Positions 39,707 through 64,000 are shown, counted from the first letter of the stretch. The stretch: DNA of 64,000 nt from a virus (IMGVR_UViG_3300021091_005158:6070-70069); one strand, 5' to 3'. Made by a program: numbers and translations. Notes: generated by a model not told the origin, from the sequence alone.

Positions 39707-39734
39707 ATATTCATATATTATATAAAATATTTAA

Positions 39735-40244
39735 ATGAAAATATTACTTGGATCTCACGGGACCGGAAAAACTACCTTACTTAAAGAGGTTGCTACTAAT
39801 TATCCCGGGTATTATGTTACTGATGGTTTCTCAAGACCTGTTATTAAGATAGGCAAGCAGCTGGAATTATCAGGTTATGAAAAGCAATACGTAATAAATG
39901 AACTATCTGCTTGGGCTTATCAAAATTACTTAACACATAAAAATGTAATTAGTACTCGAAGTATTGTTGATTGTATTATTTACTCCCAAATTTTAGCCCC
40001 TAATCTTGATATTGAAAACCTTATTACTCTATTTGAAGAAACTAAAGATCAAGTAGAACGTTTTTTTTATATACCTGTTGAGTTTGATTTTGAAGCCGAT
40101 CCTGATCGCTTAAGTCAAGAATTGCAATTAAAAATAGATCAAGTTATAAGAGAATTTATGATAAATTATATTCCTAAAGAAAAAGTAGTTATATTAAAAG
40201 GTACAGTAGAAGAACGTTTAAAATCGATATCCTTATATCTTTGA
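39735..40244 (+). CDS. P-loop NTPase (putative nucleotide/nucleoside kinase)
   Basis: Walker A GSHGTGKTTLLKEV at the N-terminus; small (169 aa) kinase-like size. Confidence 0.4.
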   Translation: MKILLGSHGTGKTTLLKEVATNYPGYYVTDGFSRPVIKIGKQLELSGYEKQYVINELSAWAYQNYLTHKNVISTRSIVDCIIYSQILAPNLDIENLITLFEETKDQVERFFYIPVEFDFEADPDRLSQELQLKIDQVIREFMINYIPKEKVVILKGTVEERLKSISLYL

Positions 40245-40247
40245 ATT

Positions 40248-42168: not shown

Positions 42169-43184
42169 AGATAGATAAATATAATAAGCTAAGAGTAAAG
42201 CTTGAGGTGCATAAGCTTGAGCAAAACTATTTTACTTTAGATAGAATACTCTACTACTTTTCTTTTCTTGGTAATATATTCCTTATTTACTTTGGATACT
42301 TTTTTGTAAAGTCAATTACTGATAGTATCCCTCCTTTATTTCCTTTTCAGGATACTTTTTTTGCTATTTTCGTAGCACTTTTCCTTACTGGCTATGAACT
42401 AACTAAAAGGTTTGTCTTAGAACAATTGTCAATTAGCATTTTGCAAATAAAAAAATTTACTTATTCTATAGCTGTAGGATCAGTTATTTTTATGGGATTA
42501 ATGGCAGGAAGCTTCTACCTATCAATAAAAGGAGCTCATAGATTAATTGATGATTCAGAGACTATTCAAACCACTCTTGAAACTAGTATTTCATTGAAAG
42601 CCGATTCTATTGCGAAATATTACGATAAAGAGATTAATTATTACAGAACCCAGCCTTCTAAGTCAAGGGTAGATAGACAATATAGGGATTCAATAGTTGC
42701 TTCCCTGCAAAAAAGTAAAGAGACGAAATTAAACGAAATAGAGGATAAGTCTAAAGAAAAAACGGCTAGCAAGCTGGACGTAAGTAGCGAGAATTCAACA
42801 GCATTTTTCTTTATAACTGTATTTTTGGAATTATTAATCTTAGTAGGCGTAGGTTTTAACGCATACTATACTATAGGGAGTTACGACGAAACTAAGAAAC
42901 TCCTACAAACTCCCAAATTCAAGCAGTTGGAGCTTAACTTAAAACTACTTAAATTGTACTATCAAAACGGTAAGAAGTTAGCTGGTGACCCTACTCTATC
43001 TTTCAGCAAATTTCAATCTCTTGTACAGACTGCAGGCTTATACTGCTTTCAGAAAGACCTAAAAGCGTTTACTACTTTATGTCAAGAGCTCGAAATCGCT
43101 AGAGAGTCTAGGGGTAGAAAAAAAGAGTTAACTATGTCTTACGATCAAGCAAAAAAATTGATAGAAAATCAAGAAGGTTTTTAA
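42165..43184 (+). CDS. Membrane-anchored coiled-coil protein
   Basis: N-terminal TM helices (ILYYFSFLGNIFLIYFGYFFV ...) and a long helical Lys/Glu-rich C-terminus. Confidence 0.3.
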   Translation: MKIDKYNKLRVKLEVHKLEQNYFTLDRILYYFSFLGNIFLIYFGYFFVKSITDSIPPLFPFQDTFFAIFVALFLTGYELTKRFVLEQLSISILQIKKFTYSIAVGSVIFMGLMAGSFYLSIKGAHRLIDDSETIQTTLETSISLKADSIAKYYDKEINYYRTQPSKSRVDRQYRDSIVASLQKSKETKLNEIEDKSKEKTASKLDVSSENSTAFFFITVFLELLILVGVGFNAYYTIGSYDETKKLLQTPKFKQLELNLKLLKLYYQNGKKLAGDPTLSFSKFQSLVQTAGLYCFQKDLKAFTTLCQELEIARESRGRKKELTMSYDQAKKLIENQEGF

Positions 43185-45493
43185 TGCAGCAAAAAAGTTA
43201 TGTTATAGTAAATAATAAAGAAACGTTAAAAGAGTTAGTTCAGCATATAGCAACTAGCGAGTACGTAGCGTTAGATACTGAAACCGATAGTTTGAATCCT
43301 AGAAAGGGTCGAATTATCGGCTTTTCTATTTCTGGTGAAGTAGGTAAAGGTTACTATATGCCTATAATGGTATGGAATACTGATAGACTCGAAGAAGTAG
43401 TTATTGAAGGAAAAAACGCTAACGTTTTAGCTAAATATGTTATTAAGCAATTAATAGGGAAGAAAGTTATTTGTCATAACGCTTCTTTCGACTTACGTTA
43501 TATAGAGAATTTTTACGGAATTAACTTGTTAAATTATTTGCATGCTGATACTTCTCTACTTGTGCATACAGTAAAAGAAGAAGGAGCATTTGGATACGGT
43601 AATCCTTTTGGATTAAAAAGTATTGCTATAATGGTTCAAAAGGAAATCGGTTTAGATGTAGAAACTGAAGCTAATGAAGAACAAATAGCTCTTAAAGAGA
43701 GTATAAAAGCAAATGGCGGTTCAACTTCTAAGGAGAATTATGAGATATACAAAGCTGATTTAGTGGTACTATCAAAGTATGCAGCAGCCGATACCGACTT
43801 GACGCTACGTATCTATCATCACTTTTACAAAATATTAGTAGAGGAAGGTCTTGAAAAGTTTTTCTTTGAAGACGAGGTGATGCCTGTTTATAGAGAGGTT
43901 ACTATACCGATGGAGAAACACGGTATTAGATTAGATATCTCTCTTATTAAAGAAACTAAAGATAGAATAACTAAAGACCTCGAAGTGCAGGCAACAGCAG
44001 TACTCAAAGAGTTATTAAAAGAGCCTAAAGTACGCAAATGGATTATTGATCAAGCGGTAGAAGCGTATCCTCCAAAAAGCAAAGGTATATTTGCCCAACG
44101 TCTACTCGAGCAAAATAATATCGATCTACCTAAATCAAATAAGACAGGTAAATTTACTATAAATAAAGCGGCTATATTAGCTCTATCTCCTTCTACTATA
44201 AAGGATTACTTGATGACTGGTGATATAGAAAATCTCACTAAAGATCAAATTGTTAAAGTTAGTTTATCTTTATGGAAAGAGGATAATGACGGCCAGTTCT
44301 TTAATATACAGTCTAAAGATCAAATGGGTAAGATAGCTTTTGATGTATTAGGTGAGAAATCGATTTCAACAACTACTAAAGGAAAGGCTCAATTTGACGA
44401 AGATATGATCCAATCCATAAAGGACAAATATTTATGGGCAAATCATTTACGCTTATACAATAAACTTACTAAAATTAAAACTGCATACGTAGATCGATTT
44501 TTTGATTCAGCTGAGGATGGTAGATTTTATCCTTATTTCAAGCAGAACGGTACTGTATCAGGAAGATACGGATCAGATATGCAGCAGTTGCCTAAGCCAC
44601 TAGAGCCAGGTCAAGAGGAAGATTTAATTATTGGATATACAAACCTTGTAAGAGCTTTCTTTATTGCTGACGAAGGCACTAAGATACTTGATACTGATTA
44701 TGCATCTCTGGAACCTCGGGTATTTGCTACAGTAGCAGGTGATCAAGGTCTGAAAGATATTTTTAATAATGATTTAGATTTTTATTCTCATATTGCTATA
44801 AAAACCGAAAAGCTTGAAGGAGTAAGTGCCCATACCAAAGCTCCTAATTTTCTTAAAAAAATAGATCCCGTCAAAAGACAGACTGCAAAAGGTTATGCGT
44901 TAGGTGTACCGTACGGAATGTCCGGATATGCCCTAGCAATGTCGTTAGGAGTAGATAGGAAAGAAGGAGAAAGACTTGTAGAAGGTTACTTAGATGGATT
45001 TCCTGAATTAAGAAAGTGGAGAGAGAATTCTAGAAAGTTTGTTAAAGAGAACGGCTATATTAAGAATAAGGTAGGTCGAATCAGGCATTTGCCACAGGCT
45101 AAGGAAATCTATTCTGCCCTAGGGGATAGGCTTATTGAAGACTGGAGGTTTAGAAAAGATTTGGAGAGAGAGTATGGAGTAGAGTACACAACTGGTTTGT
45201 ATAGAGATTATAAAAATGCACTTAACAACTGTTTAAACTTTCAAATTCAGAGTTATTCAGCAAGCATAGTAAACCGTGCAGCCCTACAAATCAATAGGAG
45301 ATTCAAGGGAGAAGGCATTAGAGGGCAGGTAATTTGTCAAATTCATGACCAACTAGTATGCCAAGTTAAAGAAGAAGACGTAAAACGTGCATGCGAAATA
45401 GTACAAGACTGTATGGAGAATACAACTAAGCTAGAAGGTGTGCAACTTATTGCCGATCCGGAAGTTTCGGTTAATTTTCGTGATGGACACTAG
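43184..45493 (+). CDS. polA: DNA polymerase I (family A) with 3'-5' exonuclease domain
   Basis: Exo I VALDTETDSL; SGRYGSDMQQLP; motif A ILDTDYASLEPRVFA; motif B RQTAKGYALGVPYG; motif C QIHDQLVCQV. Confidence 0.85.
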   Translation: MQQKSYVIVNNKETLKELVQHIATSEYVALDTETDSLNPRKGRIIGFSISGEVGKGYYMPIMVWNTDRLEEVVIEGKNANVLAKYVIKQLIGKKVICHNASFDLRYIENFYGINLLNYLHADTSLLVHTVKEEGAFGYGNPFGLKSIAIMVQKEIGLDVETEANEEQIALKESIKANGGSTSKENYEIYKADLVVLSKYAAADTDLTLRIYHHFYKILVEEGLEKFFFEDEVMPVYREVTIPMEKHGIRLDISLIKETKDRITKDLEVQATAVLKELLKEPKVRKWIIDQAVEAYPPKSKGIFAQRLLEQNNIDLPKSNKTGKFTINKAAILALSPSTIKDYLMTGDIENLTKDQIVKVSLSLWKEDNDGQFFNIQSKDQMGKIAFDVLGEKSISTTTKGKAQFDEDMIQSIKDKYLWANHLRLYNKLTKIKTAYVDRFFDSAEDGRFYPYFKQNGTVSGRYGSDMQQLPKPLEPGQEEDLIIGYTNLVRAFFIADEGTKILDTDYASLEPRVFATVAGDQGLKDIFNNDLDFYSHIAIKTEKLEGVSAHTKAPNFLKKIDPVKRQTAKGYALGVPYGMSGYALAMSLGVDRKEGERLVEGYLDGFPELRKWRENSRKFVKENGYIKNKVGRIRHLPQAKEIYSALGDRLIEDWRFRKDLEREYGVEYTTGLYRDYKNALNNCLNFQIQSYSASIVNRAALQINRRFKGEGIRGQVICQIHDQLVCQVKEEDVKRACEIVQDCMENTTKLEGVQLIADPEVSVNFRDGH

Positions 45494-46273: not shown

Positions 46274-46645
46274 ATGTCGAAGTTACAACCGTTAAATGGG
46301 TATTTAATTTTAAGACCTATAGAAGAAGAGGAACAAATGTATGGTAATATTGTTATTCCAGATTTAGGAAAAGAGAGGCCTGAGATGGGAGAAGTGATTG
46401 CTGTCTCTGCTACGTATAATTTTAATTCTGATAAACTAGTACTTTCAAATCTTGAATTAGGAGACAAAGTTCTTATCCCTAAACTAGGTTCTCTAAGAAT
46501 CACTGTAGAAAGCGAAGAATATTTTATTTGCAAAGAGCAAGACGTCTACGCAAAATTAAGCGGACAATTAAGTGTTTTATCAGTTCTTAAAGAGACAGTA
46601 GTTGATCCTGATTTTGAAAAATACAACAACAGTAAAGTATCATAA
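46274..46645 (+). CDS. groES: Co-chaperonin GroES
   Basis: LQPLNGYLILRPIEEEEQ...GNIVIPD matches GroES (kPL.DRVlvkr.E.E..t.gGI.lP). Confidence 0.7.
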   Translation: MSKLQPLNGYLILRPIEEEEQMYGNIVIPDLGKERPEMGEVIAVSATYNFNSDKLVLSNLELGDKVLIPKLGSLRITVESEEYFICKEQDVYAKLSGQLSVLSVLKETVVDPDFEKYNNSKVS

Positions 46646-46646
46646 A

Positions 46647-48269
46647 ATGACAACAACAGTATTTGGAATTGAATTAAAAAATAAGTTACTTGCGGGTATT
46701 AAAAAATTAAATGAATCGGTAACTTCCACTTTAGGGCCAGGAGGCCGTACAGTGTTAATTAAAGAAAAATCTGGCGAAGTAAAAGTAACTAAAGACGGAG
46801 TTACAGTAGCTCGTTCCTTTCACGAACTTGAAGACCAGGTTGAAGACCTTGGTGCCCAGCTAGTAAAGCAGGTATCCATAAAGTCTGCTAATGAAGCAGG
46901 AGACGGAACTACTACCTCTACTCTTCTTGCTACAACAATGGTTGAAGAAGGATTAAAGCTTATTAATCAAGGATCTAACCCAGTAGAGGTTAAGAAAGCT
47001 ATTGAGGTTTACGTAAAAGAAGTTATCGATAACTTAAAAAAAATATCGAAAGATATTTCCTCTCAAGATCAAATTCGTCAAGTAGCAGCTATCTCTGCAA
47101 ATAACGATATTGAGATAGGCAATCTAATATCAGCTGCTATTGAAAAAGTAGGAAGAGAAGGTATTGTTACTATTGAAGAATCTAAAACAGGTGAAACTGC
47201 TTTGGAGATAGTAGAAGGTATGCAGTTTGATAGAGGATACAAATCCCCATACTTCGTTACTAATAATACTACAATGCATGCAGTCTTGAATGAACCTTAT
47301 ATTCTTATTTACGATGGCCGTATCACTAAAGCTGCTGATATTTTAAATTCGTTAACTAAAGCCAACTCCGATCAAAAAGCTTTACTAATAGTAGCTGAAG
47401 ATATAGAAGACGAAGCGCTTGCTACTTTGATAGTAAATAAAATGCGCGGTATAGTTTATGTAGCAGGAGTAAAAGCTCCTGACTTTGGGGAACGCCGTAC
47501 TTTAATCTTAGAAGATCTAGCTATTTTAACCGGGGGACAGGTAATTTCTAAAAATAAAGGACATAAACTAGAGAAAATAACCCCGTTACAGTTAACGGAA
47601 TTTTTCGGAGTCGCAAGAACTGTTACGGTATCTAAAGAAACCACTACTATAGTTGATGGCAAAGGTAATATAGATGCTATAAGCTTAAGAGCTGAAGAGA
47701 TAAAAGATCAAATTGAAAAAGCTACATCATTTTATGAGAAAGAAAAGCTTCAGGAGAGGCTTGGTAAATTAGTTGGCGGAGTAGCTATTATTTCAGTAGG
47801 AGGAAATTCCGATATTGAGATTAAAGAAAAGAAAGATAGGGTAGAAGATGCTTTGTTTGCTACTAAAGCAGCTCTAGTAGAAGGCGTAGTTCCTGGTGGA
47901 GGACTTGCATTAATTACAGCATTCGAAAATATTAAATTACCTTTAACATCAAGCGATGAGCAAAAAGGTTGGAATATAGTTAAAAGAGCTTGTCATGCTC
48001 CTTTCAAAGTAATTTTAACAAACTGTGGTATTGAAGATCACTACCGTATTTTAAGTGAAATTAAGAATTATGAAAGTCAAGAATCAGCTCACACTTATGA
48101 TGCTAAAAATCAAAAAGTAGTAGAGGCAACTGAAGCAGGTCTTCTTGATCCGACTAAAGTCACACGTACTGCTCTTGAAAATGCTGCCTCCGTAGCAGGT
48201 ACTATACTAACAACAGAATCAGTAATTTTCGAAAAAAAAGACGATAAGAAAAAAGATGAAGAAATTTAA
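46647..48269 (+). CDS. groEL: Chaperonin GroEL
   Basis: [17 protein letters not shown] and GGGLAL motifs. Start placed at MTTTVFG (46647), just after the GroES stop; the listed ORF start at 46602 overlaps GroES. Confidence 0.85.
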
Positions 48270-50850: not shown

Positions 50851-51278
50851 GGGGGAGTCCAGGTATTGCTCCGTAATGTGAAGGTAATACTACATGCAGG
50901 CGTTTGGATATGTCGCCTTTAAACAAATTTTCAAACAATAAATGACGAAATGTCAACAATGACCTATGATGACCTAGTGGCATTTGTAGGTGCTGAAGAG
51001 TACGCATACGCGGCTTAGTAAGCTTGGGGCAGCTGATAGCCTCGCAACAGAACAGCAGCGAGTCGTACGCTATAGAGACGGCATCCGGACGCATATTGCG
51101 AGCCGTGAGTTTCCTAGTTTAGAGTAAAATTAGGTGGTGGAAGGCACGCTAACCAAAACTAGTGGCCCCAACTACTGATCAGCTTGCAGATCTAAGCATG
51201 TGATACGCTGGTGTTATTGTTCCTTATGGATACACGGGTTCGATTCCCGTCTCCTCCACTATTTATAGATGTAAAAGA
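50851..51278 (+). ncRNA. ssrA: tmRNA (SsrA)-like gene
   Basis: 5' GGGGGAG pairs with 3' CTCCTCC (7 bp, one G-U), followed by discriminator A. T-arm acggg-TTCGATT-cccgt. Internal tag-like ORF ggt gct gaa gag tac gca tac gcg gct TAG TAA (G-A-E-E-Y-A-Y-A-A**) at 50989-51021. Confidence 0.55.
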
Positions 51279-53167: not shown

Positions 53168-53240
53168 TGACTATTAGCTCAGAAGGTTAGAGCAAGCCCT
53201 AAATCAGGCCGTGCCACTGGTTCGATTCCAGTATAGTCAC
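53168..53240 (+). tRNA. tRNA-like gene with non-canonical anticodon arm (possible pseudo-tRNA)
   Basis: Acceptor tgactat/atagtca, D-arm gctc-agaaggtta-gagc and T-arm actgg-TTCGATT-ccagt are intact. The 17-nt anticodon region agccctaaatcaggccg does not fold into a 5-bp stem. Confidence 0.35.
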
Positions 53241-53247
53241 CTTATAC

Positions 53248-53321
53248 TGACTCTTAGCTCAGTTGGTGAGAGCGGCTGACTCATAATCAGTAGGTGACTG
53301 GTTCGATTCCAGTAGAGTCAA
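53248..53321 (+). tRNA. tRNA-Met/Ile2 (anticodon CAT)
   Basis: Acceptor tgactct/agagtca; D-arm gctc...gagc; anticodon stem gctga/tcagt with loop ctCATaa; T-arm actgg-TTCGATT-ccagt. Confidence 0.7.
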
Positions 53322-53323
53322 CG

Positions 53324-54026: not shown

Positions 54027-54324
54027 AGATTTAGGGGCTATTACAATTACAAACGGACCTGGAAGACCTGAGGATAGTATTACGAAAGCGGTTATTAGCG
54101 ATTTAAACAGTAGAGCTGATAGAGGTTGGAAAAAGTATAATTCAACACTTAGTCAAAATAATCACGAAAATATGCTTCAGCATGCTTATGAAGAAGCTTT
54201 AGATTTCGCTCAATACTTAAAGAAAGAAATAACGACTCTTAATACTGTTCAGGATTTAGTTAAACAGTACCCTAACGATCAAGAGTTAGGTAATAAAATA
54301 AGAGCGTTATATGACAAAAGATAA
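54013..54324 (+). CDS. Hypothetical protein
   Basis: ORF only. Confidence 0.25.
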   Translation: MTWNRDLGAITITNGPGRPEDSITKAVISDLNSRADRGWKKYNSTLSQNNHENMLQHAYEEALDFAQYLKKEITTLNTVQDLVKQYPNDQELGNKIRALYDKR

Positions 54325-55180
54325 AACTGTATCATTTTCTCAATATCAAATCTATAAGACTTGTCCACACCAATGGTACCTATCTTATGTTAAAAAGCTA
54401 CAACCTTTTAAGCCTTCAGTACATTTAATTTTCGGTACAGCCTTCCATGAAACATTACAAAACTATTTAAAGGTAATGTTCGAGGTATCGATCTCTGCAG
54501 CAGATAAGATCGATCTACCTACTTATTTTAAAACTAGGTTTATAGAATTATATAAGGAGAACTCAGTAGTAAGCCATTTCTCAAATCCTGAAGAACTAAG
54601 CGAGTTCAATGACGATGCAGTAGCGATATTAAATTTTATTAAAAGAAAGCGAGGGTTATTTTTTAAGAGAAAGAATCACGAGCTCGTTGGTATAGAGATT
54701 CCTATTAACGGGACTATTGTAGAAGAATTGAAGTTCGTTAAGATGAAAGGTTTCATTGATCTCGTTATATATAATAAAATTCTCGATAAGTATACTATTT
54801 ACGATATTAAGACTTCTACAAGAGGCTGGTCTGACTACGAGAAGAAAGATCAAACTAAAATTAATCAAATTCTTTTGTATAAACGGTTTTTCTCAGCTTT
54901 ACGCAATGTTCCTGAAGATAAGATAGACATACAGTTTTTTATAGTACGTAGAAAAATCAATGAGAATCTTGAGTTTGCCCCTAAGAGAGTACAGGAGTTT
55001 ATACCCCCACACGGGATTAGGAAAGTAAAGAATGCTTTTGAAGATTTTCAAAGTTTCGTAAATGATGTCTTTAATTTAGAAGGAGGGTATCAAGAAAAGA
55101 TTTATTTTAAAAATATAGCTAAGTGCAAATTTTGCCCCTATTTCGATAAACCAGATCTTTGCGACAGAAAAAACAACTAG
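54311..55180 (+). CDS. PD-(D/E)XK nuclease, Cas4/RecB-like with 4-Cys cluster
   Basis: N-terminal KTCPHQWYL; core IDLVIY...YDIKTS (D...D.K); C-terminal CKFCPYFDKPDLC (the Cas4-type Fe-S cysteine arrangement). Confidence 0.55.
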   Translation: MTKDKTVSFSQYQIYKTCPHQWYLSYVKKLQPFKPSVHLIFGTAFHETLQNYLKVMFEVSISAADKIDLPTYFKTRFIELYKENSVVSHFSNPEELSEFNDDAVAILNFIKRKRGLFFKRKNHELVGIEIPINGTIVEELKFVKMKGFIDLVIYNKILDKYTIYDIKTSTRGWSDYEKKDQTKINQILLYKRFFSALRNVPEDKIDIQFFIVRRKINENLEFAPKRVQEFIPPHGIRKVKNAFEDFQSFVNDVFNLEGGYQEKIYFKNIAKCKFCPYFDKPDLCDRKNN

Positions 55181-55231: not shown

Positions 55232-55438
55232 ATGCATATCGGCAAAAAAGGAGATATCCTGACAACAGTCAGGCTTCAAGATGAATTATTTGAAGCCTTT
55301 AAGCAAGAGGGCTTAAAGAATAGGATTACAATGAGAAATCTTTTAGAAAGAGCTATGTTCCTTTACCTTACAAACGAAGACTTCAAAAGAACTATTAATA
55401 ATCAATTAAGTGCTCGTTATATCAAACCAACAGAATAA
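55232..55438 (+). CDS. Hypothetical small protein
   Basis: ORF only. Confidence 0.25.
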   Translation: MHIGKKGDILTTVRLQDELFEAFKQEGLKNRITMRNLLERAMFLYLTNEDFKRTINNQLSARYIKPTE

Positions 55439-55604
55439 GTTTAAGTATTCAAAAATAGGCATGAGATTGTTATATATTTTGTTGGAAACTTATAAAATTA
55501 TTTAAAATTATACGAAAACTTTAATTATAGTTCTATGAATTATACTATGATAATATACTGTCTCAAGCAATTAAAAAAGTGAAAGATATAAATCTATAAA
55601 TTAC

Positions 55605-57050
55605 ATGTCAAAAGAAGGTTATATTCCAAAAGAGCAGAGAAAAAAAATACTTTTGCTTGCAGACGATATTCGATTTACCTCTGGAATATCTACAATGGCT
55701 AAAGAGATAGTTATCGGAACCTCTCATCGCTTAAACTGGGTTAACTTAGGCGCAGCTATTACACACCCAGAAGCAGGTAAAAAACTTGATTTATGCGCAG
55801 ATACAAACACTTTAGCGAAGATCGAAGATGCTTCGGTTTTTATATATCCTCACTCAGGTTATGGATCTCAAGAGATCTTACGTCAATTAATTGAAATCGA
55901 AAAGCCTGATGCTATCGTTTTCTTTACTGATCCTAGATATTGGATCTGGCTTTTTCAGATAGAGAATGAAGTAAGAAAGAAAATACCAATGGTATATCTT
56001 AATATATGGGACGATTTACCTGCACCTCTCTATAATAAAGCTTATTATGAATCTTGTGATGCATTGATGGCTATCTCAAAGCAAACTTTTAATATTAATA
56101 AGCTAGTACTTGGAGAAAAAGCTAAGGACAAAGTAATAAAATATGTTCCTCACGGTATCAACGAGGAAGTATTCTATCCCATTACTCCTGAAATGACAGA
56201 AGACTATAGTAAGGTTAAAGAGAAGAAAAAGAAGTTTTTTGGAGAAAATCAACCTAATTTCGTTATTCTTTATAACGCGCGAAATATTAGAAGGAAGTGT
56301 GTACCTGATTTGATAGTAGGTTATGTTGAATTTTGCAATCAGTTGCCTCTAGAAGAAGCTAAAAAATGTGCATTACTCCTACACACACAGCCTGTAGATG
56401 ATAACGGAACCGATCTTCCGGCAGTTATCGAGCTGTTATGTGATCCTGAGAGACATAGGGTAGTATTTTCTACTGATAGAAACTCTCCTTATGATATGAA
56501 TATATTATATAACTGCTGTGACGTAGTAGCCCTCGTCTCTTCTAATGAAGGATGGGGACTGTCGCTTACTGAAGGTATGATGTGTGGTAGGCCTATAATT
56601 GCAACAGTTACCGGAGGAATGCAAGATCAAATTAGATTTGAAGATAAGCAAGGCAATTGGATAGAGTTTAACGAAAACTTTTGTAGCAATCATTTCGGAA
56701 CTTATAAGACTCACGGCAATTGGGCATTCCCCATATTTCCTAGCAATATTAGTCTTGTAGGGTCCGTACCTACTCCGTATATCTTTGACGACAAAGCCGA
56801 CTTCCGAGATATCGCTATTCAAATATCTGCTTGTTATAAATCAGGCGAGAATTTCCGTAAGTTTATCGGAGCGGAAGCTCGAAAATGGGTAACTTCGGAC
56901 GAATCTATGATGTCAGCTAGAGCTATGTGTAAAAATGTTATAGATACACTTGAAGAGACTTTTGCTAAATGGAAGCCGAGACCAAGTCACGAATTTATTA
57001 AGATATCAAAATTACCTAAGAAAAAAATTATACATAAGCTAACTTATTAA
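55605..57050 (+). CDS. Glycosyltransferase, GT-B fold (GT4/GT1-like)
   Basis: SNEGWGLSLTEGMMCGRPIIATVTGG matches the E-x7-E / EGFG...EA.a.G.PvIa donor-binding motif. Confidence 0.55.
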   Translation: MSKEGYIPKEQRKKILLLADDIRFTSGISTMAKEIVIGTSHRLNWVNLGAAITHPEAGKKLDLCADTNTLAKIEDASVFIYPHSGYGSQEILRQLIEIEKPDAIVFFTDPRYWIWLFQIENEVRKKIPMVYLNIWDDLPAPLYNKAYYESCDALMAISKQTFNINKLVLGEKAKDKVIKYVPHGINEEVFYPITPEMTEDYSKVKEKKKKFFGENQPNFVILYNARNIRRKCVPDLIVGYVEFCNQLPLEEAKKCALLLHTQPVDDNGTDLPAVIELLCDPERHRVVFSTDRNSPYDMNILYNCCDVVALVSSNEGWGLSLTEGMMCGRPIIATVTGGMQDQIRFEDKQGNWIEFNENFCSNHFGTYKTHGNWAFPIFPSNISLVGSVPTPYIFDDKADFRDIAIQISACYKSGENFRKFIGAEARKWVTSDESMMSARAMCKNVIDTLEETFAKWKPRPSHEFIKISKLPKKKIIHKLTY

Positions 57051-57051
57051 A

Positions 57052-58365
57052 ATGAAGCAGTTCTGTGTTATTTCAGCTCCGCCGGATACTTATAGCGGTT
57101 ATGGAGCAAGAGCGAGGGATTTTATAAAAGCAGTTTACGAACTAAAAAAAGATCAATGGGATATAAAAATTATGTCTCAGAGATGGGGTAGTACTCCTTG
57201 GGGTTTTATAGATGATAATCTAGAGGAGTGGGGATGGATGAAACCTCTTTTAATAAACAATCAGTTACCTAAGCAACCAGATGTATGGATACAGATTACG
57301 GTTCCAAATGAATTTCAGCCTGTAGGTAAAGTAAATATCGGAGTAACTGCCGGAATAGAGACTACTGTATGCGACCCCGAATTCATTATAGGATGTAATA
57401 AAATGAATTTAGTTTTAGTATCTTCTAATCATGCTAAAAAAGTATTTGAAAGTACTACTTATGAGCAGAGGGATAAAAATAGTAACGCTGTAGTTGAAAT
57501 AATTAAAATAAAAGCCCCTGTAGAGATATTATTTGAAGGTGTAGATTTAAATAAGTATTTTTATATCCCTAAAGAACAATTAGAGTGTACTCCTCTTGTC
57601 AATAATCTAAATAGTATTTCAGAGCAATTTAGTTACTTATTTGTGGGGCATTGGCTCCCAGGAGACTTCGGCGAAGATAGAAAGAATACGAGTCTTTTAA
57701 TTAAGATATTTTTAGAATCGTTTAAAGATAAAAAAGAACAACCAGCCTTGATTTTAAAAACTTCTCAAGCTGGTGCTAGCATAATGGATAGAGATGAGGT
57801 ATTAAGAAAAATAGATATAATTAGAGAAAGCGTAGAAGCAAAAAAACTTCCAAATATTTATCTCGTACACGGTGATTTAGATGATAAGGAGATTAACAAT
57901 TTATATAATCATCCAAAAGTGAAGGCTTTCGTATCTCTAACTAAAGGAGAAGGCTTCGGTAGACCATTAGCTGAATTCAGTCTATCTAAAAAACCTTTAA
58001 TCGCTTCAGGATGGTCCGGTCATACTGATTTTTTGAACCCTGAATTTAGCATCCTTCTCCCAGGAGAAATAACTCCCGTACATCCTTCAGCATTTGCAAA
58101 AGGGCTAATTATAGAAGGCTCATCTTGGTTCTCAGTCAATCATTCTGCAGCTGCCCAAGCTTTAGTTGACGTTTATAAAAATTATAGTAAATTTGAAGGA
58201 CCTGCTAAGAGGCAAGCTTATAAAATTAAAAATGAATTTAACTGGGACAACATGGTCTTAGTTTTAAATGAATATTTAAACCGTTACGTACCTGAACAAA
58301 AAGAGATAGTATTACCTAAGCTAAAAAAAATTGAACTTCCTAAACTTACAAAATTAACTTTATGA
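57052..58365 (+). CDS. Glycosyltransferase, GT-B fold (GT4-like)
   Basis: TKGEGFGRPLAEFSLSKKPLIASGWSG: the same GT-B C-terminal motif. Confidence 0.5.
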   Translation: MKQFCVISAPPDTYSGYGARARDFIKAVYELKKDQWDIKIMSQRWGSTPWGFIDDNLEEWGWMKPLLINNQLPKQPDVWIQITVPNEFQPVGKVNIGVTAGIETTVCDPEFIIGCNKMNLVLVSSNHAKKVFESTTYEQRDKNSNAVVEIIKIKAPVEILFEGVDLNKYFYIPKEQLECTPLVNNLNSISEQFSYLFVGHWLPGDFGEDRKNTSLLIKIFLESFKDKKEQPALILKTSQAGASIMDRDEVLRKIDIIRESVEAKKLPNIYLVHGDLDDKEINNLYNHPKVKAFVSLTKGEGFGRPLAEFSLSKKPLIASGWSGHTDFLNPEFSILLPGEITPVHPSAFAKGLIIEGSSWFSVNHSAAAQALVDVYKNYSKFEGPAKRQAYKIKNEFNWDNMVLVLNEYLNRYVPEQKEIVLPKLKKIELPKLTKLTL

Positions 58366-58604
58366 CATCTAAAGAATTTACTACCTGGTTAAAAGGATTT
58401 TCTAAAGCAGCTAATTCGTACAATATTACTCCCGAGCAATGGGATACTATTCTAGAAGAACTTAATAAAGTACAAGACACGTTGTCTTTTCCTGATTATA
58501 GTCCTAAGCCTAATGCAACATCAGATATGCCCGAACCTATAAAGATTTGGCATTCTACTAACACTAATCTACTTCTAAAAGATAAAACGCTACTGAATGA
58601 CTGA
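58362..58604 (+). CDS. Hypothetical protein
   Basis: ORF only. Confidence 0.25.
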   Translation: MTSKEFTTWLKGFSKAANSYNITPEQWDTILEELNKVQDTLSFPDYSPKPNATSDMPEPIKIWHSTNTNLLLKDKTLLND

Positions 58605-59040
58605 TCAGATGATAATATGCCCTAAATGTGGATGCGACGGCTGCTACGTAACACCCATAAACGAAACTAAATTTAATTATTTCTGCTGGGGATGTGGCTT
58701 TCAGACTAACGATTTAATGAAGCAAGGAGAGTTTAATTTTGAAGAATACGAAGAAACTCTACCTGAACTTTATAAGGATACTAAATTTGTAGATAATCAA
58801 CAGAGAGTATGGTATCCAATTAGTATCAACATATCCGATAGAGGCACTGTTTTTCTGAATGGAAAGACTAAAGAAGAAACGCAATGGTCGGCTATTAAAG
58901 TAATTCCTTTAACCGAGGAAGAAAAAAAGCAACCGAAGTATAAAAATTTATCCTATAAATCTGATGCTAAATCAATCAAGCACTTTGGAAGTGATTTTAT
59001 AGAAGCGTGTGATTATATTGGAGTATTTAATCAAGAATAA
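58597..59040 (+). CDS. Zinc-ribbon protein
   Basis: CPKCGCDGC ... CWGCGF. Confidence 0.35.
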   Translation: MTDQMIICPKCGCDGCYVTPINETKFNYFCWGCGFQTNDLMKQGEFNFEEYEETLPELYKDTKFVDNQQRVWYPISINISDRGTVFLNGKTKEETQWSAIKVIPLTEEEKKQPKYKNLSYKSDAKSIKHFGSDFIEACDYIGVFNQE

Positions 59041-59654
59041 TGTTCAGAATAAGTTACGCTGTTACCGCTCATAACGAGCACGAGGAATTAGCTCGTCTAC
59101 TTGATCAGCTAGATAGAGGTATCAGAGACGTAGACGAGGTAGTTATTCAAGTTGATACTTCTGTAACTAAAGAGGTATTGGAAGTTATAAGCAGGTATCC
59201 GGCATTCTCACTATGGCAGTTTCCGTTGAAGGGCAACTTTGCTGCATTCAAGAATAATCTGAAGAGCAAATGTACTGGAGAATGGATATTCCAGATCGAT
59301 GCAGATGAATATCTATACCCTGAATTATTATTGAATTTACCTGAAATATTAGCTGCAAATCCTACTGTAGATCTTTTCTTGGTACCTAGAATAAATTTAG
59401 TAGAAGGTCTAACTCAAGAGCATATTCAGAAATGGAGATGGCATGTAAACGATACCGGCTATGTTAACTTCCCTGATTACCAAACAAGAATACTCCAAAA
59501 TTCCCCGAAGATTAGCTGGGTAAGTAAAGTACATGAAGTAATTATCGGACATAGTAATTATGTTATGCTTCCTGCAACTGAAGAGTTTTGTTTAATACAT
59601 AAGAAAGGAATAGAGAGACAAGAAAGTCAAAATGCTTTTTATAATACATTTTAA
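59040..59654 (+). CDS. Glycosyltransferase family 2-like
   Basis: N-terminal YAVTAHNEHEELARLLDQL (cf. the GT2 PtYNe...L...L motif) and the FQIDADEY DxD. Confidence 0.5.
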   Translation: MFRISYAVTAHNEHEELARLLDQLDRGIRDVDEVVIQVDTSVTKEVLEVISRYPAFSLWQFPLKGNFAAFKNNLKSKCTGEWIFQIDADEYLYPELLLNLPEILAANPTVDLFLVPRINLVEGLTQEHIQKWRWHVNDTGYVNFPDYQTRILQNSPKISWVSKVHEVIIGHSNYVMLPATEEFCLIHKKGIERQESQNAFYNTF

Positions 59655-60586
59655 TGAAAAGTTTAAAAGTAGCAATATATGAATCATTAGATCATTTCGT
59701 TCCTGGAGGAGTTGGATGGTATGAAGGACTAGAAAACCTAGGTCACGAACCTTATATTCTTGAATTTAAATATGACTTAAACGCATACGAGCTTCCAGAA
59801 AGTCCAGATCTCTTAGTTATTATGGGAATAACTCCTGAGATGTTAATACCTGTTTTAACGTTTAAAGACAAACATCCAAGCACTAAAATTATTGTTAATT
59901 TTTCTGGCTTTAAAGATTACTTTTTAAGATTAAAAGGGGTAGTAGATCTTTGGATAGAGCCATTTATGAAGCATGAATATGTTAAAAAGAAGTTTGAAGA
60001 AAATGGACTGCCGGTAGCATTCTTACCTCTAGCAGCTACTCAAAGTATTTACTATAAAACTGTAAACGAATTTAGTAAAACCTACGATGTAAGCTTTGTA
60101 GGAGGATTCGGAGGCCAAGGACATGGATATAGATATCAAGATGTTTATTTATTTCCTGTGATCGATAGAGGTTATAAGGGTTTCTTTGGAGGCTTCTATT
60201 ATAAAGGTATAAACTATCCTACCGTTAAATACTCTTTTTTAAATGAAGTATATAACGCTACCAAAGTAAATTTGAACTTCCATTACGACCAACAAAAAAG
60301 AGAGCAGTTAGACCAAGAAGGATTTAAGTTAGATTTTAATACTAGGGTTTATGAAATAGCATTAAGTAATAATTTCCAAATAAGCGATCATCCCGAGGTG
60401 TTAAATGTTTTTGACGGGGCTATTCCTTATATTTCGAAAGAGGATTGGATAGACGCTATTGACTTTTACTTAGATAAACCTGATCTAAGAGCGGAGCTAG
60501 CATTAAGAGCAAATCAAATATGTCTTGAAAAGCATACATGGAAACAAAGAATGATAGAATTTTTTAATATACTTTCAAACAAGTGA
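59654..60586 (+). CDS. Hypothetical protein (glycosylation locus)
   Basis: ORF only. Confidence 0.25.
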   Translation: MKSLKVAIYESLDHFVPGGVGWYEGLENLGHEPYILEFKYDLNAYELPESPDLLVIMGITPEMLIPVLTFKDKHPSTKIIVNFSGFKDYFLRLKGVVDLWIEPFMKHEYVKKKFEENGLPVAFLPLAATQSIYYKTVNEFSKTYDVSFVGGFGGQGHGYRYQDVYLFPVIDRGYKGFFGGFYYKGINYPTVKYSFLNEVYNATKVNLNFHYDQQKREQLDQEGFKLDFNTRVYEIALSNNFQISDHPEVLNVFDGAIPYISKEDWIDAIDFYLDKPDLRAELALRANQICLEKHTWKQRMIEFFNILSNK

Positions 60587-60587
60587 T

Positions 60588-61223
60588 ATGACTACAGTAA
60601 CTTACGATACTACTACCTTTCCATTTAAAGAAGCTATTGAAAAACTATTTGAGGTTAATGATCTTGCTTTATTAAATGATGAAGTAGATGTTTTCAAGAG
60701 AGAGAATGATCAAAGTACAAAGTACCATAAAGCTTTCTACGAGTGGGCGCGAACAGATTCATTCGAAAAGCTCTACAATAGTTTCATTCTTAAAGTAGTT
60801 AAACCTTTATATGGCGAACAGATAGTATATCAAGCAATTCCTACCTTCAGAGTTGCTTACCCTAATAATATTGCCGTTGGAGAGTTTCATAAGGATAAAA
60901 ATTATAGAGACGTTAAATGGGCAGGAGAAGTAGATGAAGATAATTTCTTCTTACCTTTTACTGAGGCCTTCGATACTAATACTATTTGGGTAGAATCTGA
61001 AGAAGATAAAGGGGATTATCTACCTATAGAGTGTAAGTATGGAGAATTGGTACAGTGGGATGGTGCCAATCTAAGACATGGAAATAAAATTAATATAACA
61101 GGTAAGTGCCGAGTTAGTGTAGACTTTAGGGTTATGACTTATTCTAGATACAAGCCAAGTGAGTATGGTTCTATAAATACTAAAACTAAATTCCAGATAG
61201 GAGGTTATTATAGAACTGTATAA
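60588..61223 (+). CDS. Putative 2OG-Fe(II) oxygenase-like protein
   Basis: GEFHKDKN (HxD) ... ANLRHGN (distal His). Confidence 0.35.
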   Translation: MTTVTYDTTTFPFKEAIEKLFEVNDLALLNDEVDVFKRENDQSTKYHKAFYEWARTDSFEKLYNSFILKVVKPLYGEQIVYQAIPTFRVAYPNNIAVGEFHKDKNYRDVKWAGEVDEDNFFLPFTEAFDTNTIWVESEEDKGDYLPIECKYGELVQWDGANLRHGNKINITGKCRVSVDFRVMTYSRYKPSEYGSINTKTKFQIGGYYRTV

Positions 61224-61234
61224 AACTATACAAA

Positions 61235-61813
61235 ATGATTCTAAAAAAAATTTACGAAACAATTATTAGTACTACACCTGAAACAATTAATAATGTTGAA
61301 GTAGAGGAACTATCCTTGAATATTACAGATCATAATTATAGGAATTTTTTTACTGACAAAGCAGGAAGAGAGCATTATAGACTGCTAGTAAATATTGCCA
61401 GTTTAGTTAGTAATGAAATTATTATAGACCTAGGGACTCACATAGGATGTTCATGTTTAGCACTAGCATCAAATAAAACTAATACTGTTCATTCGTTTGA
61501 CCTAGTTGATAGAAGAATGGTAAATCAGCCTACTGATAACTGCTATTTTTATGTAGAGAATATTTTAGATACTGAAAAGATTCAACTGTTTGAGAAAAGT
61601 AGTATAATAATTTTAGATACAGCTCATGACGGTCCTTTTGAAAACGCCGTTTATGAATATCTTAAAAAAATAAACTGGAAAGGAATTTTACTTCTCGATG
61701 ACATTTATTTAAATGATGCTATGGTAAGTTATTGGAATGAAATAACTTATGAAAAAAAAGACATTACTAATTTAGGACATTTTAGCGGAACAGGTATAGT
61801 TCTTTTTGATTAA
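61235..61813 (+). CDS. Class I SAM-dependent methyltransferase
   Basis: Motif I IIDLGTHIGCSCLALA; acidic motif II IIILDTAHD. Confidence 0.5.
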   Translation: MILKKIYETIISTTPETINNVEVEELSLNITDHNYRNFFTDKAGREHYRLLVNIASLVSNEIIIDLGTHIGCSCLALASNKTNTVHSFDLVDRRMVNQPTDNCYFYVENILDTEKIQLFEKSSIIILDTAHDGPFENAVYEYLKKINWKGILLLDDIYLNDAMVSYWNEITYEKKDITNLGHFSGTGIVLFD

Positions 61814-61815
61814 CT

Positions 61816-62574
61816 ATGAATAAATTTATTATTCTTACAGCAGCATATAAGGTTTCTAGATGGATTGAGATGTACGTTAATATGCTTAAGTTTCAATCCT
61901 ATAAAAACTTCGAGGTGTATTTTGTTGATGATGCATCTCCAGATAATACTATAGGGAGGTTGATAGAAGAGATAGCTGGAGATACCAGGTTTCATATTTT
62001 TAAAAACGAATTTAATGCCGGATCCCCATTAGAAAATATTGTTAAAGCCTTCGATTATGCTAATCCTGCAGATGAAGATATCATTGTTAATATAGACGGG
62101 GACGATTGGCTAGCTTCAGTGTTCGTTTTACAGTATCTAAATAGCGTCTACAATAACACACAATGTTGGCTGACTTATGGTAACTATCAAATGTACCCAA
62201 GCGGACAATTAGGCGGACACGCATCTCTTTCTATTCCGAATGAAGTAAGTGATGCAAATGCTTACAAGCAATATCCTTTTGTATCCAGTCACTTACGGAC
62301 TTACAAAGCAGGCCTTTTTAAAAAAGTCGATAGGAACGATCTGTTAGATCCTAGAACAGGTAAGATTTATACTGAAGCGAGTGATCTAGCGCTTATGTTT
62401 CCTATGCTTGAAATGGCTGGGAATAAAAGAGCTATTAAAACAGATGACATACTCTTGATTTTGAATAGAGAGAATGAAATGAATGAAGCTAAATTAGGGT
62501 TGAATAAACAAAAAGAAACAGAAGCGATTATTAGAACAAAGCAGAAAGTCTATGACAGGATTCATAACCTGTGA
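61816..62574 (+). CDS. Glycosyltransferase family 2
   Basis: FEVYFVDDASPDNT (the DDAS.D.T signature) and NIDGDDWL (DxD). Confidence 0.7.
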   Translation: MNKFIILTAAYKVSRWIEMYVNMLKFQSYKNFEVYFVDDASPDNTIGRLIEEIAGDTRFHIFKNEFNAGSPLENIVKAFDYANPADEDIIVNIDGDDWLASVFVLQYLNSVYNNTQCWLTYGNYQMYPSGQLGGHASLSIPNEVSDANAYKQYPFVSSHLRTYKAGLFKKVDRNDLLDPRTGKIYTEASDLALMFPMLEMAGNKRAIKTDDILLILNRENEMNEAKLGLNKQKETEAIIRTKQKVYDRIHNL

Positions 62575-63355
62575 TATTTTAGGTCCAGGAGACGGTAAGT
62601 ATAATTTCGGATTATGTAACCAAATGTTTCAGGTAGCAGCTTTGTATAGTCATGCTTATGATAATAACCTTAAAGTTACATTTCCTCAAATTAAGAATCC
62701 TTCTTTTGGTAACTATCACCATAATATTTTTTCTAAGGTACCTCGAGAAGATATTGATGCTAGTAAGTTTTTTTATCTAGAATTGAATTATGGATATCAT
62801 GATCTCAAATCACATGATGATATTATCTATAGAGGTTATATGCAATCTGAAAGATATTTTGCTCATAACCGTCAATTAATCCTAGATCTATTTTCTCCTA
62901 CCGATCAGATAAAAAAGTATATTGAAGATAAATACAGAAAAATTCTAAGCTGTAATGCTTTATCAATTCATATACGGAGAGGCGATTATGTAAACTTGCC
63001 TAACCATCATCCGATTGCAAGTAGTGAGTACTATACAAGAGCAATCAAGTATCTAACTTCAAATACTCAGATTGATAGTTATGTAATTTTTAGTGATGAT
63101 ATAAACTACTGTAAAGGAGTATTTGGAGAATCAGAAGATATTACTTATATTGAAAGAGAAGAAGACTATATCGATCTATACCTAATGTCATACTGTAATC
63201 ATAATATTATCGCCAATAGTACTTTCAGCTGGTGGGGAGCATGGCTTAATCAAAATCAAAATAAAATAGTCATAGCACCTAAGGAGTGGTTCGGTCCTGC
63301 AAGAATAGATCTAGATACACGAGATCTGATCCCTGAAACTTGGATAAAACTATAG
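62552..63355 (+). CDS. Alpha-1,2-fucosyltransferase-like (GT11)
   Basis: GLCNQMFQVAALYSHA (GT11 motif I, G.LGNQMFQyA) and LSIHIRRGDY (GT11 HxRRGD motif). Confidence 0.7.
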   Translation: MTGFITCDILGPGDGKYNFGLCNQMFQVAALYSHAYDNNLKVTFPQIKNPSFGNYHHNIFSKVPREDIDASKFFYLELNYGYHDLKSHDDIIYRGYMQSERYFAHNRQLILDLFSPTDQIKKYIEDKYRKILSCNALSIHIRRGDYVNLPNHHPIASSEYYTRAIKYLTSNTQIDSYVIFSDDINYCKGVFGESEDITYIEREEDYIDLYLMSYCNHNIIANSTFSWWGAWLNQNQNKIVIAPKEWFGPARIDLDTRDLIPETWIKL

Positions 63356-63356
63356 C

Positions 63357-63770
63357 ATGGAAAATATTTACAGTAAGCATGAGACTGAAGTTTTACTTCA
63401 CATTATCGTTCGAAAAGAAGATATGGCTCCTGGAAGAAAAGATATCGTTTCTGAAGAGAATTTTATTCAATGTTCTATCCTCAATATGGAACAGGGTAAA
63501 ACTTTTAGACCTCACAGACATATTTGGAAAGAGAGAACAAGAGATGTAATTGCACAAGAGAGTTGGATTGTAGTTCAAGGCAAAGTAAAATGTATTTTCT
63601 ACGATTTAGATGATACTATTATTGCTGAGCGTATTTTAGAACCAGGAGATGCAAGCTTTACTCTTCAAGGAGGACATAATTATTTAATACTAGAAGACAA
63701 TACTTTGGTTTACGAGTATAAAACAGGTCCTTATGAAGGACAAGCTTTAGATAAAACATTTATAGATTAA
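63357..63770 (+). CDS. Cupin-fold sugar ketoisomerase/epimerase-like protein (FdtA/WxcM-like)
   Basis: About 137 aa; beta-rich pattern IVVQGKVKCIFYDLDD ... PGDASFTLQGGHNYLILEDNT. Confidence 0.4.
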   Translation: MENIYSKHETEVLLHIIVRKEDMAPGRKDIVSEENFIQCSILNMEQGKTFRPHRHIWKERTRDVIAQESWIVVQGKVKCIFYDLDDTIIAERILEPGDASFTLQGGHNYLILEDNTLVYEYKTGPYEGQALDKTFID

Positions 63771-63775
63771 TCTAT

Positions 63776-64000
63776 GAGAATATTATTATTATTTTTATTA
63801 CTTATTTCAAATGTCTTTGCCCAAGACACAATTACAATTTATCATAAAGCTTATTCTACTACATTTAGTAAATCAAAACACTATCCTGTTAAAGTAGAAT
63901 GGTGGTTAACTAAAAGTAAGTTAATATGTGATACTAAAGCTAAACGTGGTGATAAATTTATTTCTGACCCTAAATTAGCTAATGAAACTAATTTACAATC
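63776..64000 (+). CDS. Secreted protein, possibly DNA/RNA non-specific endonuclease (3' end outside window)
   Basis: Signal peptide MRILLLFLLLISNVFAQ; YSTTFSKSKHYPVKVEWWLTK resembles the N-terminal region of Endonuclease_NS. Confidence 0.3.

Follow-up and report, generated by a model that had tools for sequence, protein, structure and literature searches.

The window analysed here, the viral DNA stretch IMGVR_UViG_3300021091_005158:6070-70069 in its full length of 64,000 nucleotides (nt), comes from a large freshwater phage and ends in an operon rich in glycosyltransferase (GT) genes (55605-63770), and the question that this locus raises is on what acceptor its glycan is built. Many large aquatic phages carry hypervariable GT-rich islands, for which functions at the host surface or on DNA have been guessed, and no test of these was found in the literature. 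The original prediction for the window named virion proteins, host surface glycans, and the modified DNA base as candidate targets. Two parts can be told apart in the island studied here, an exchangeable cassette and an initiating module that is conserved and virus-specific, and virion proteins appear to be the best supported of the three candidates, by genomic association. The reading tentatively preferred, its probability being judged a little short of even, is that virion or fibre proteins are O-glycosylated in the cytoplasm, the core of the glycan being conserved and its outer part variable.

The 55605-63770 region is a real, tightly packed, translationally coupled glycan operon, in which 12 open reading frames (ORFs) of the + strand follow one another with gaps of at most 11 nt or with overlaps. 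Glycosyltransferase support from a hidden Markov model (HMM) or a motif was obtained for six genes (two GT4, two GT2, one Glyco_trans_1_2, and one GT11). The operon is larger than first described: it runs ca. 7 kb past the window end, as read in contig L001, so that the whole unit measures ca. 15 kb and encodes eight or nine transferases. Its enzyme families are ordinary and its architecture is informative. Loci of this kind are already known, since GT-rich hypervariable islands beside fibre genes have been described (PMC7029224; PMC12801897); not described in the literature searched are a conserved module with an orphan zinc-ribbon protein, the frame-plus-cassette layout, and a statistical link to Ser/Thr-rich Gly-X-Y fibres.

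Conserved frame and exchanged cassette

The left module of the operon comprises the genes for two GT-B glycosyltransferases, GT4a (55605..57050) and GT4b (57052..58365), an 80-amino-acid (aa) protein (58362..58604), a zinc-ribbon protein of 147 aa, ZnR (58597..59040), and a minimal 204-aa GT-A (GT2) glycosyltransferase, GT2s (59040..59654), which is the last of the module. All of them lie on the + strand, as do the left neighbours of the operon, a PD-(D/E)XK nuclease (54311..55180; Pfam PDDEXK_1, 2e-21) and a 68-aa protein (55232..55438). The whole string of nuclease, 68-aa protein, GT4a, GT4b, 80-aa protein (optional), ZnR, and GT2s recurs, wherever the sequence allows, in all of the 80 related IMG/VR viral loci which served as the comparison set for the core. 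The 68-aa protein is present in nearly all and the 80-aa protein in many, not all, of these loci, and neither has a Pfam match. The nuclease lies 5' of GT4a in those related loci that reach far enough, and also in immuto (44% identity), a phage introduced below, and in Microcystis phage Mel-JY01 (40%).

A nucleotide search of 50,697 phage records returned no relative for the locus or for the structural region, and the closest cultured phage, Flavobacterium phage vB_FspM_immuto (160 kb), was therefore found at the protein level, its polymerase being 55% identical and its gene order largely common with that of the window. The locus is syntenic with immuto gp181-gp169 (NC_055915, 49172-59988), for which the literature searched yielded annotation only and no functional study. 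The two phages have in common the nuclease, the small protein, GT4a, GT4b, ZnR, and GT2s at the left end, as well as a 398-aa GT2 at the right end. GT4a, GT4b, ZnR, GT2s, and the terminal GT2 are 59, 53, 43, 47, and 49% identical to gp181, gp180, gp179, gp178, and gp169, respectively, which matches the identities of the DNA polymerase (55%) and the sheath (53%). In contrast, the genes between the left module and the terminal GT2 are unrelated to those of immuto, whose middle part codes for a WecE aminotransferase, a methyltransferase, a mannosyltransferase, a PglB-like acetyltransferase, and an epimerase, and lacks the Glyco_trans_1_2, GT2, GT11, WbuC, and Gmd set of the phage studied here. 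The locus thus has a frame of four conserved transferases, the 398-aa GT2 past the window end and, at the opposite side, GT4a, GT4b, and GT2s.

The genes downstream of the left module were compared on 325 proteins from ca. 45 loci, which fall into 152 families defined at 30% identity. The commonest cassette families are short-chain dehydrogenase/reductase (SDR) epimerases and dehydratases, methyltransferases, DegT aminotransferases, GT2 enzymes, thiamine pyrophosphate (TPP) enzymes, and acetyltransferases. A relative with 91% nucleotide identity, L017, gives a closer view of the turnover: the 61217-62560 segment, with a methyltransferase-like gene and a GT2 (GT2b), is replaced, GT2b being 45% identical to its L017 counterpart whereas the flanks are 94-97% identical; the identity of GT11 and WbuC falls to 80%, and one methyltransferase is an indel. 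Synteny, invariant motifs, family turnover, and the swaps relative to L017 together indicate a conserved frame around an actively exchanged cassette. In the phage studied here the cassette contains the transferases Glyco_trans_1_2, GT2, GT11, and GT2, and, as tailoring functions, Gmd, WbuC, an aminotransferase fragment, and O-/C-methyltransferases.

No protein among the 325 has more than two hydrophobic segments and one has two, and the segment-bearing proteins that are assignable to Pfam families are soluble enzymes; no membrane protein was found among the cluster proteins of this phage. Families of priming phosphoglycosyltransferases, flippases or transporters, and polymerases are missing from the 25 commonest Pfam families (census of 113). 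From the hydrophobic segments and the Pfam assignments of the 325 proteins it follows that no priming transferase, flippase, or polymerase is encoded there, and a Wzx/Wzy-dependent or ATP-binding cassette (ABC)-dependent O-antigen or capsule locus was rejected for that reason. Seroconversion of the GtrABC type was likewise set aside: a weak match to PHROG 841 (0.0037) falls on a soluble GT2, and transmembrane proteins are lacking.

The module extends to other phages. Mel-JY01 carries GT4a, GT4b, and GT2s at 35-53% identity, and Rhodothermus phage RM378 has a match to GT4a (27%) and a GT2s-like stretch (29%), with no match to GT4b. Nothing relevant was found in the literature on the glycosyltransferases of these two phages.

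Enzymes of the core and of the cassette

GT4a, a GT-B glycosyltransferase of the retaining GT4 type, scores 43.3 bits (3.7e-11) against Pfam Glycos_transf_1, whose cut-off is 26.4 bits. Its AlphaFold2 (AF2) model has a predicted local distance difference test (pLDDT) score of 86, and the top 50 Foldseek matches are all GT-B proteins, mostly of GT4 and related families, with HepE, MshA, GlgM, sucrose-phosphate synthase, chlorovirus B736L, and BshA among the neighbours. The best sequence match in the PDB is also the chlorovirus glycosyltransferase B736L (1e-7). Database homologues of GT4a exceed 8,000, the best 120 of them all being at least 69% identical, and a motif scan, of limited sensitivity, across 185,579 genomes of bacteria and archaea found no relative. 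GT4b, paralogous to GT4a, stays under the Glycos_transf_1 cut-off with 19.9 bits and matches PHROG 2170 ("glycosyltransferase") over its full length (5e-21), which makes it a divergent paralogue. GT2s matches Pfam Glycos_transf_2 with 39 bits (1e-9; cut-off 23.3 bits). The original prediction had been made dependent on the catalytic residues of the GT-like ORFs, and in three core transferases these are invariant: E315-x7-E323 of GT4a in 70/70 orthologues, E300-x7-E308 of GT4b in 58/58, and D87-A-D89 of GT2s in 45/45. The two GT4-like GT-B enzymes which it had listed thus hold, the first above the Pfam cut-off and the second by PHROG 2170 and the E-x7-E motif, and so does a zinc ribbon, in the form of ZnR with its CxxC...CxxC pattern. 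ZnR is highly conserved (mean column identity 81%; model pLDDT 93), and a structure search of the PDB and BFVD returned no neighbour except an orthologue from an uncultured phage; it could be an adaptor or a regulator.

The cassette starts with a gene (59654..60586, +) for a Glyco_trans_1_2-type, CgeB-like putative glycosyltransferase (PF13524, 2.3e-14; 54 bits with a cut-off of 25), which has no counterpart in immuto and was not listed in the original prediction. It is followed by genes for a 211-aa protein (60588..61223, +) and a 192-aa protein (61235..61813, +), which had been proposed to be a 2-oxoglutarate (2OG) oxygenase and an S-adenosylmethionine (SAM) methyltransferase. The former matches TIGR04324 over only 43 residues (1.2e-7; 31.5 bits, far under the cut-off of 150) and gave no match in a PDB sequence search, so that the proposal is not borne out; the protein may, on this weak likeness, belong to the "sporadic carbohydrate cluster" type of 2OG-Fe(II) oxygenases. 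The latter has a Rossmann-like GxGxG motif, with no match in Pfam, NCBIfam, or PHROGs and a best PDB E-value of 0.7, and the methyltransferase label is kept here as a putative one, at motif level. GT2b (61816..62574, +) has 42 bits against Glycos_transf_2 (1.1e-10) and contains VDDASPDNT and DGDD, and with the DxD-containing GT2s it makes up the predicted pair of GT2 enzymes. The next gene (62552..63355, +) codes for a GT11 alpha-1,2-fucosyltransferase-like protein (Pfam Glyco_transf_11, 1.2e-27; 97 bits with a cut-off of 23.9), ca. 35% identical to the products of cyanophage GT11 genes. Both the family and the HIRRGDY motif had been recognized correctly; the other motif, given as GxLGNQMFQ, actually reads FGLCNQMFQVA. 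The last complete gene (63357..63770, +) encodes a cupin metalloprotein of the WbuC family, typical of O-antigen clusters (TIGR04366, 1.4e-11; 44.4 bits with a cut-off of 42); the cupin part of the earlier "cupin ketoisomerase-like" label therefore stands and the ketoisomerase part is not borne out.

The window end cuts a gene for a non-specific DNA/RNA endonuclease inserted in the operon (63774..64000, +; L001 11223-11846, Endonuclease_NS, 2e-41). Its product has an N-terminal hydrophobic segment, and in L017 the gene lies upstream of the operon. In L001 the Endonuclease_NS gene is followed by those for a Methyltransf_11 protein, a GT2, a truncated DegT aminotransferase, an FkbM-type methyltransferase (Methyltransf_21), and the GDP-mannose 4,6-dehydratase Gmd (a near-equivalog, TIGR01472, 2e-114), and the continuation ends with a 304-aa protein distantly like the immuto mannosyltransferase, a weak Methyltransf_24, and the 398-aa GT2. 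A GDP-6-deoxyhexose (fucose-type) step involving Gmd and GT11 is plausible. The predicted SDR-type nucleoside diphosphate (NDP)-sugar epimerase was confirmed as an extended-SDR epimerase/reductase gene outside the operon (35109..36056, +; Pfam Epimerase, 5.5e-41); its product is 38% identical to immuto gp170, has a partial match to Fcl (1.7e-15), and may be the partner of Gmd. The GT32-like protein proposed at 27659 falls just below the cut-off (22.6 versus 23) and is a weak candidate. As a whole, the machinery is sufficient for a methylated oligosaccharide containing 6-deoxyhexose, as had been predicted, with Gmd, two more GT2 enzymes, and Methyltransf_11/21 found past the window.

The acceptor of the glycan

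Ser/Thr-rich Gly-X-Y fibres are suggested as acceptors by two genomic associations that are independent of each other. The C-terminus of the fibre described below fetched 80 loci, dereplicated to 62 groups. Fibres of the Ser type, (Gly-Ser/Thr-Ser)n, have the GT4a/GT4b/GT2s module within 10 kb in 7/15 groups, compared with 0/47 of the others (p = 1e-5), and fibres of the Thr/Gln type have homologues of the window-start genes (DUF6445, the 2OG oxygenase, and 323-aa and 623-aa proteins) within 10 kb in 8/14 groups, compared with 1/48 of the others (p = 7e-6); the loci share ancestry, of which these Fisher tests take no account. In one locus (L129) a GT-methyltransferase fusion and two methyltransferases lie to one side of the fibre gene, and a GT, a GT2L-like gene, GT2s, GT4b, and GT4a to the other. 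A 316-kb jumbo-phage contig (IMGVR_UViG_3300032313_000682; L123/L202) holds both a Ser-rich Gly-X-Y fibre and the GT4a/GT4b/GT2s module, ca. 65 kb apart, which shows that the two need not be neighbours in order to occur together.

In the phage studied here, a collagen-like tail fibre gene with a C-terminal S74 chaperone lies directly 5' of the gene cluster at the window start (L007 3-2990; Pfam Collagen, 4e-80). Its full ORF (L101 4847-10525) has 1,893 aa and 515 Gly-X-Y triplets, is rich in Thr and Gln, and ends in an S74 intramolecular chaperone; in the fragment, Thr occupies position Y in 123 of 240 triplets, the triplets being GPT, GTT, GIT, or GxQ. The cluster that follows, entirely on the + strand, opens with the C-terminal part of a radical-SAM/SPASM enzyme (1..344; full length 289 aa; SPASM at 27-344, 8e-7, with Radical_SAM also matched by the full ORF in L007), a search with which returned only two near-identical contigs. 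It continues with a DUF6445 protein (511..1185; Pfam 1.5e-11), which gave chance matches only in a PDB sequence search and whose homologues recur beside Gly-X-Gln/Thr collagen-like fibres, and with an NDP-sugar C-methyltransferase-type protein of TcaB9-like architecture (1176..2426; Methyltransf_14, 3.5e-32, together with Methyltransf_13 and Methyltransf_23). Next come a 259-aa protein (2431..3210; best Pfam E-value 0.03, nothing in NCBIfam) and a prolyl-hydroxylase-like (PKHD) 2OG-Fe(II) oxygenase (3221..3814; PF13640, 2OG-FeII_Oxy_3, 5e-11; weak PDB matches to PiuC and P4H), whose homologues also recur beside collagen-like fibres. Pfam matches thus uphold the radical-SAM/SPASM fragment, the TcaB9-like C-methyltransferase, and a 2OG oxygenase of the original prediction, while its GT-A-like protein at 2431-3210, with E = 0.03 only, is not upheld. 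The notion that this cluster mirrors the operon misleads, as no homologous genes are common to both and the two evolve differently. immuto has neither the window-start cluster nor a collagen-like (long Gly-X-Y) fibre.

According to the preferred reading, soluble virus-specific enzymes would act in the cytoplasm of the infected cell on the phage's own proteins. The core enzymes would start and build the inner glycan on Ser/Thr residues of a virion protein, and the cassette enzymes would make unusual donors (GDP-6-deoxyhexose and others) and add and methylate a strain-specific outer glycan, which would be a determinant of surface or host interactions under diversifying selection. The candidate acceptor in this phage is the ca. 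1,900-aa Thr-rich collagen-like fibre just 5' of the window, and the window-start cluster (2OG oxygenase, DUF6445, C-methyltransferase, acetyltransferase, and radical-SAM enzyme) may be a second, fibre-dedicated module for hydroxylation and sugar tailoring. Conservation of the first-acting enzymes across host phyla is most simply explained by an acceptor that is itself conserved and comes from the phage.

The same conservation bears on the view that phage enzymes extend or alter lipid-linked glycans of the host (O-antigen, capsule, glycoprotein glycans) during infection, with superinfection block or the keeping of progeny off debris as the purpose and with the cassette tracking host serotypes. 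Gmd, WbuC, GT11, GT2, DegT, and FkbM-type methyltransferases are families characteristic of O-antigen and capsule loci, the hypervariability of the cassette is like that of serotype loci, and remodelling of the host envelope is the interpretation given for GT-rich islands of pelagimyophages and cyanomyophages (PMC7029224; PMC12801897). However, Bacteroidota and Cyanobacteria have different envelope glycans and yet the first-acting enzymes of their phages are highly conserved, and no priming phosphoglycosyltransferase, flippase, polymerase, ligase, or multi-pass protein occurs among the 325 proteins or in this phage. Moreover, the GT4a family was not found in the 185,579 prokaryotic genomes by the motif scan of limited sensitivity. 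Host surface glycans, as a candidate target, are thus disfavoured by the missing membrane machinery and by the core conserved across host phyla; they are still the main rival, considered rather unlikely.

The modified base of the phage DNA is a much poorer candidate. In favour of transferases that glycosylate a modified base, such as a 7-deazaguanine derivative, are the full preQ1/DpdA/DpdN gene set of the phage, the position of the operon within the replication region, and the fact that the DNA glucosyltransferases of T4 are also GT-B enzymes. The 7-deazaguanine set (31170-40958, +) comprises genes for QueD (31170), QueC (36570), DpdA (37457), a QueF-like protein (38226), a DpdN-like formyltransferase (39140), and FolE (40248), with the SDR gene at 35109 lying within the block. 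These genes are 34-71% identical to those of immuto and predict that fdPreQ1 replaces dG completely, which is what was measured in immuto. To our knowledge, the at least eight transferases far exceed what phage DNA glucosylation systems employ; moreover, fdPreQ1 has no hydroxyl group for glycosylation, and a hydroxymethylase partner was not identified. Liquid chromatography with ultraviolet and tandem mass-spectrometric detection (LC-UV-MS/MS) of immuto DNA revealed dA, dC, dT, and fdPreQ1 (324 Da) only, with dG fully replaced and no sugar adduct (PMC10516641). Since immuto has the orthologous core (43-59% identity) and yet unglycosylated nucleosides, DNA is a very unlikely acceptor, and this part of the original prediction is contradicted by nucleoside data, obtained on the DNA of immuto and not of this phage.

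Another cytoplasmic product would be in keeping with enzymes that are all soluble. It could be a non-structural phage or host protein glycosylated for escape from a defence sensor or for takeover of a host factor, or else a free oligosaccharide, a glycolipid, or a small molecule. Replication genes, the PD-(D/E)XK nuclease, and the small conserved protein adjoin the operon in three phage groups, some of the top structural neighbours of GT4a, such as MshA, BshA, sucrose-phosphate synthase, and GlgM, use small soluble acceptors, and the RM378 homologue of GT4a is situated amid replication genes, its sole sugar-related neighbour being the GT2s-like stretch ca. 3.5 kb downstream. Nevertheless, eight or nine transferases along with donor tailoring indicate a large exposed glycan and not a metabolite, an intracellular product would hardly account for a diversifying gene turnover, and the links to fibre genes would be left without explanation. 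Such a product is regarded as distinctly improbable.

Virion glycosylation by phage enzymes has precedents. In mycobacteriophages it also involves methyltransferases, and there it has been demonstrated, while here it is proposed from genes. Soluble glycosyltransferases encoded by these phages decorate virion proteins in the cytoplasm, and the acceptors are the C-termini of capsid and tail-tube subunits; no conserved-core-plus-cassette arrangement is reported for them (Freeman et al. 2023, PMC10527164). Pelagimyophages and cyanomyophages, T4-like aquatic myophages, have a "host recognition cluster", in which GT and lipopolysaccharide (LPS)-like genes accompany tail-fibre genes in hypervariable islands (PMC7029224). 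These islands differ from the locus described here in that GT8 dominates, they lie inside the structural module, and no conserved initiating module has been described for them (PMC7029224). The capsid glycosylation of chloroviruses is alike in being virus-encoded, cytoplasmic, and independent of the host machinery, and differs in the eukaryotic host and in the N-linked glycans of the major capsid protein. The glycan of these viruses, PBCV-1 among them, has a conserved core and strain-specific methylated outer sugars, including fucose. B736L of NY-2A (PDB 3oy2), although the best PDB sequence match of GT4a, has only ca. 15% identity with it over the fold.

A further likeness, one of analogy, is to Bacillus BclA and the serine-rich-repeat adhesins, in which cytoplasmic O-glycosylation takes place on long Gly-Pro-Thr or Ser-rich repeats. 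A conserved start, made in the adhesins by the tandem GT-B pair GtfA/GtfB, of which GtfB is non-catalytic, is followed by a strain-variable extension with deoxy, amino, or methylated sugars. The acceptors there are bacterial surface proteins, whereas phage proteins are proposed here. Membership of the GtfA/GtfB type was rejected, as GT4b keeps an invariant E-x7-E and DUF1975 is not among the Pfam matches of GT4a and GT4b.

Several points weigh against glycosylation of the phage's own virion proteins. The support for a virion target is genomic association only, the Fisher tests ignore the common ancestry of the loci, and the fold search with GT4a yielded generic GT4 neighbours with no clue to the acceptor. 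A Gly-X-Y fibre is not the clade-wide acceptor, since immuto has the core without such a fibre; it does carry Ser/Thr-rich stretches in its tail spike and in a mucin-like protein. When sampled from the GT side, the second phage lineage, in which the module occurs beside Ser-rich Gly-X-Y fibres, has such a fibre within 10 kb in only ca. 7/50 loci, and the other flanks of this lineage, with thymidylate synthase and RNA ligase, are uninformative outside the fibre-linked sublineage. In this clade the operon ends a block of replication and nucleotide-metabolism genes and is not situated in the structural block. In addition, its enzyme families are the same as in O-antigen and capsule loci, and the similar pelagimyophage islands have been read as serving host O-chain modification (PMC7029224).

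The target question is directly testable, because cultures exist of both immuto and its host, Flavobacterium sp. LMO8. Confirmation would add a widespread group of environmental phages to the mycobacteriophages and giant viruses in which virion proteins are glycosylated, and phage host-range models would gain a glycan layer. It may be speculated, with little confidence, that the Ser/Thr-rich collagen-like fibres of aquatic myophages display a self-made strain-specific glycan, produced by a virus-only four-transferase core with an orphan zinc-ribbon partner and a swappable cassette, and that this glycan is a host-range determinant. Such a glycan could bait glycan-binding outer-membrane uptake proteins of Bacteroidota or shield the virion against recognition by hosts or grazers, and it would explain the "LPS gene" islands of marine and freshwater T4-like phages.

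Flanks of the operon and other features of the window

The operon is directly preceded by an AT-rich spacer of 166 nt (55439..55604), in which the presence of a promoter is plausible. The TA-rich/TTTG promoter-like sequence proposed there did not hold, although the spacer is real: for the Bacteroidota -7 motif TAnnTTTG, 87 occurrences compare with 82 expected, and the spacer contains none on the + strand, while sigma-70-like sites are also at chance level (48 observed, 40 +/- 7 expected). TATAAATA-like boxes occur 5' of several genes. The protein encoded just upstream of the spacer, the 68-aa one, may be a regulator of the ribbon-helix-helix type, judging from its sequence.

The window has a G+C content of ca. 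34%, and every substantial ORF in it lies on the + strand; it encodes a tail sheath protein, a T4-type baseplate protein, DnaB, ribonucleotide reductase, and a family-A polymerase. Many freshwater assemblies (JGI, ENA, Logan) hold identical contigs. L001 and L007 overlap the window without a mismatch and extend it by 9.4 kb past its end and 8.9 kb before its start. Two genes for family-A DNA polymerases are present on the + strand, at 18976-20271 (431 aa) and 43184-45493 (769 aa), corresponding to immuto gp001 and gp199. A single ORF (22691-24088, +) joins a DenV-like pyrimidine-dimer N-glycosylase (PHROG 1183) with an exonuclease domain (PHROG 107), and GroES- and GroEL-like chaperonin genes (46274-48269, +) are 41 and 54% identical, respectively, to those of immuto. 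A phage transfer-messenger RNA (tmRNA) is located at 50851-51261 (+; Rfam RF00023, 56 bits with a gathering score of 47), its tag peptide being AEEYAYAA according to ARAGORN. Between it and the PD-(D/E)XK nuclease gene lie a tRNA-Met gene (53248-53322) and an odd tRNA-like gene (53168-53241) whose anticodon has four bases.

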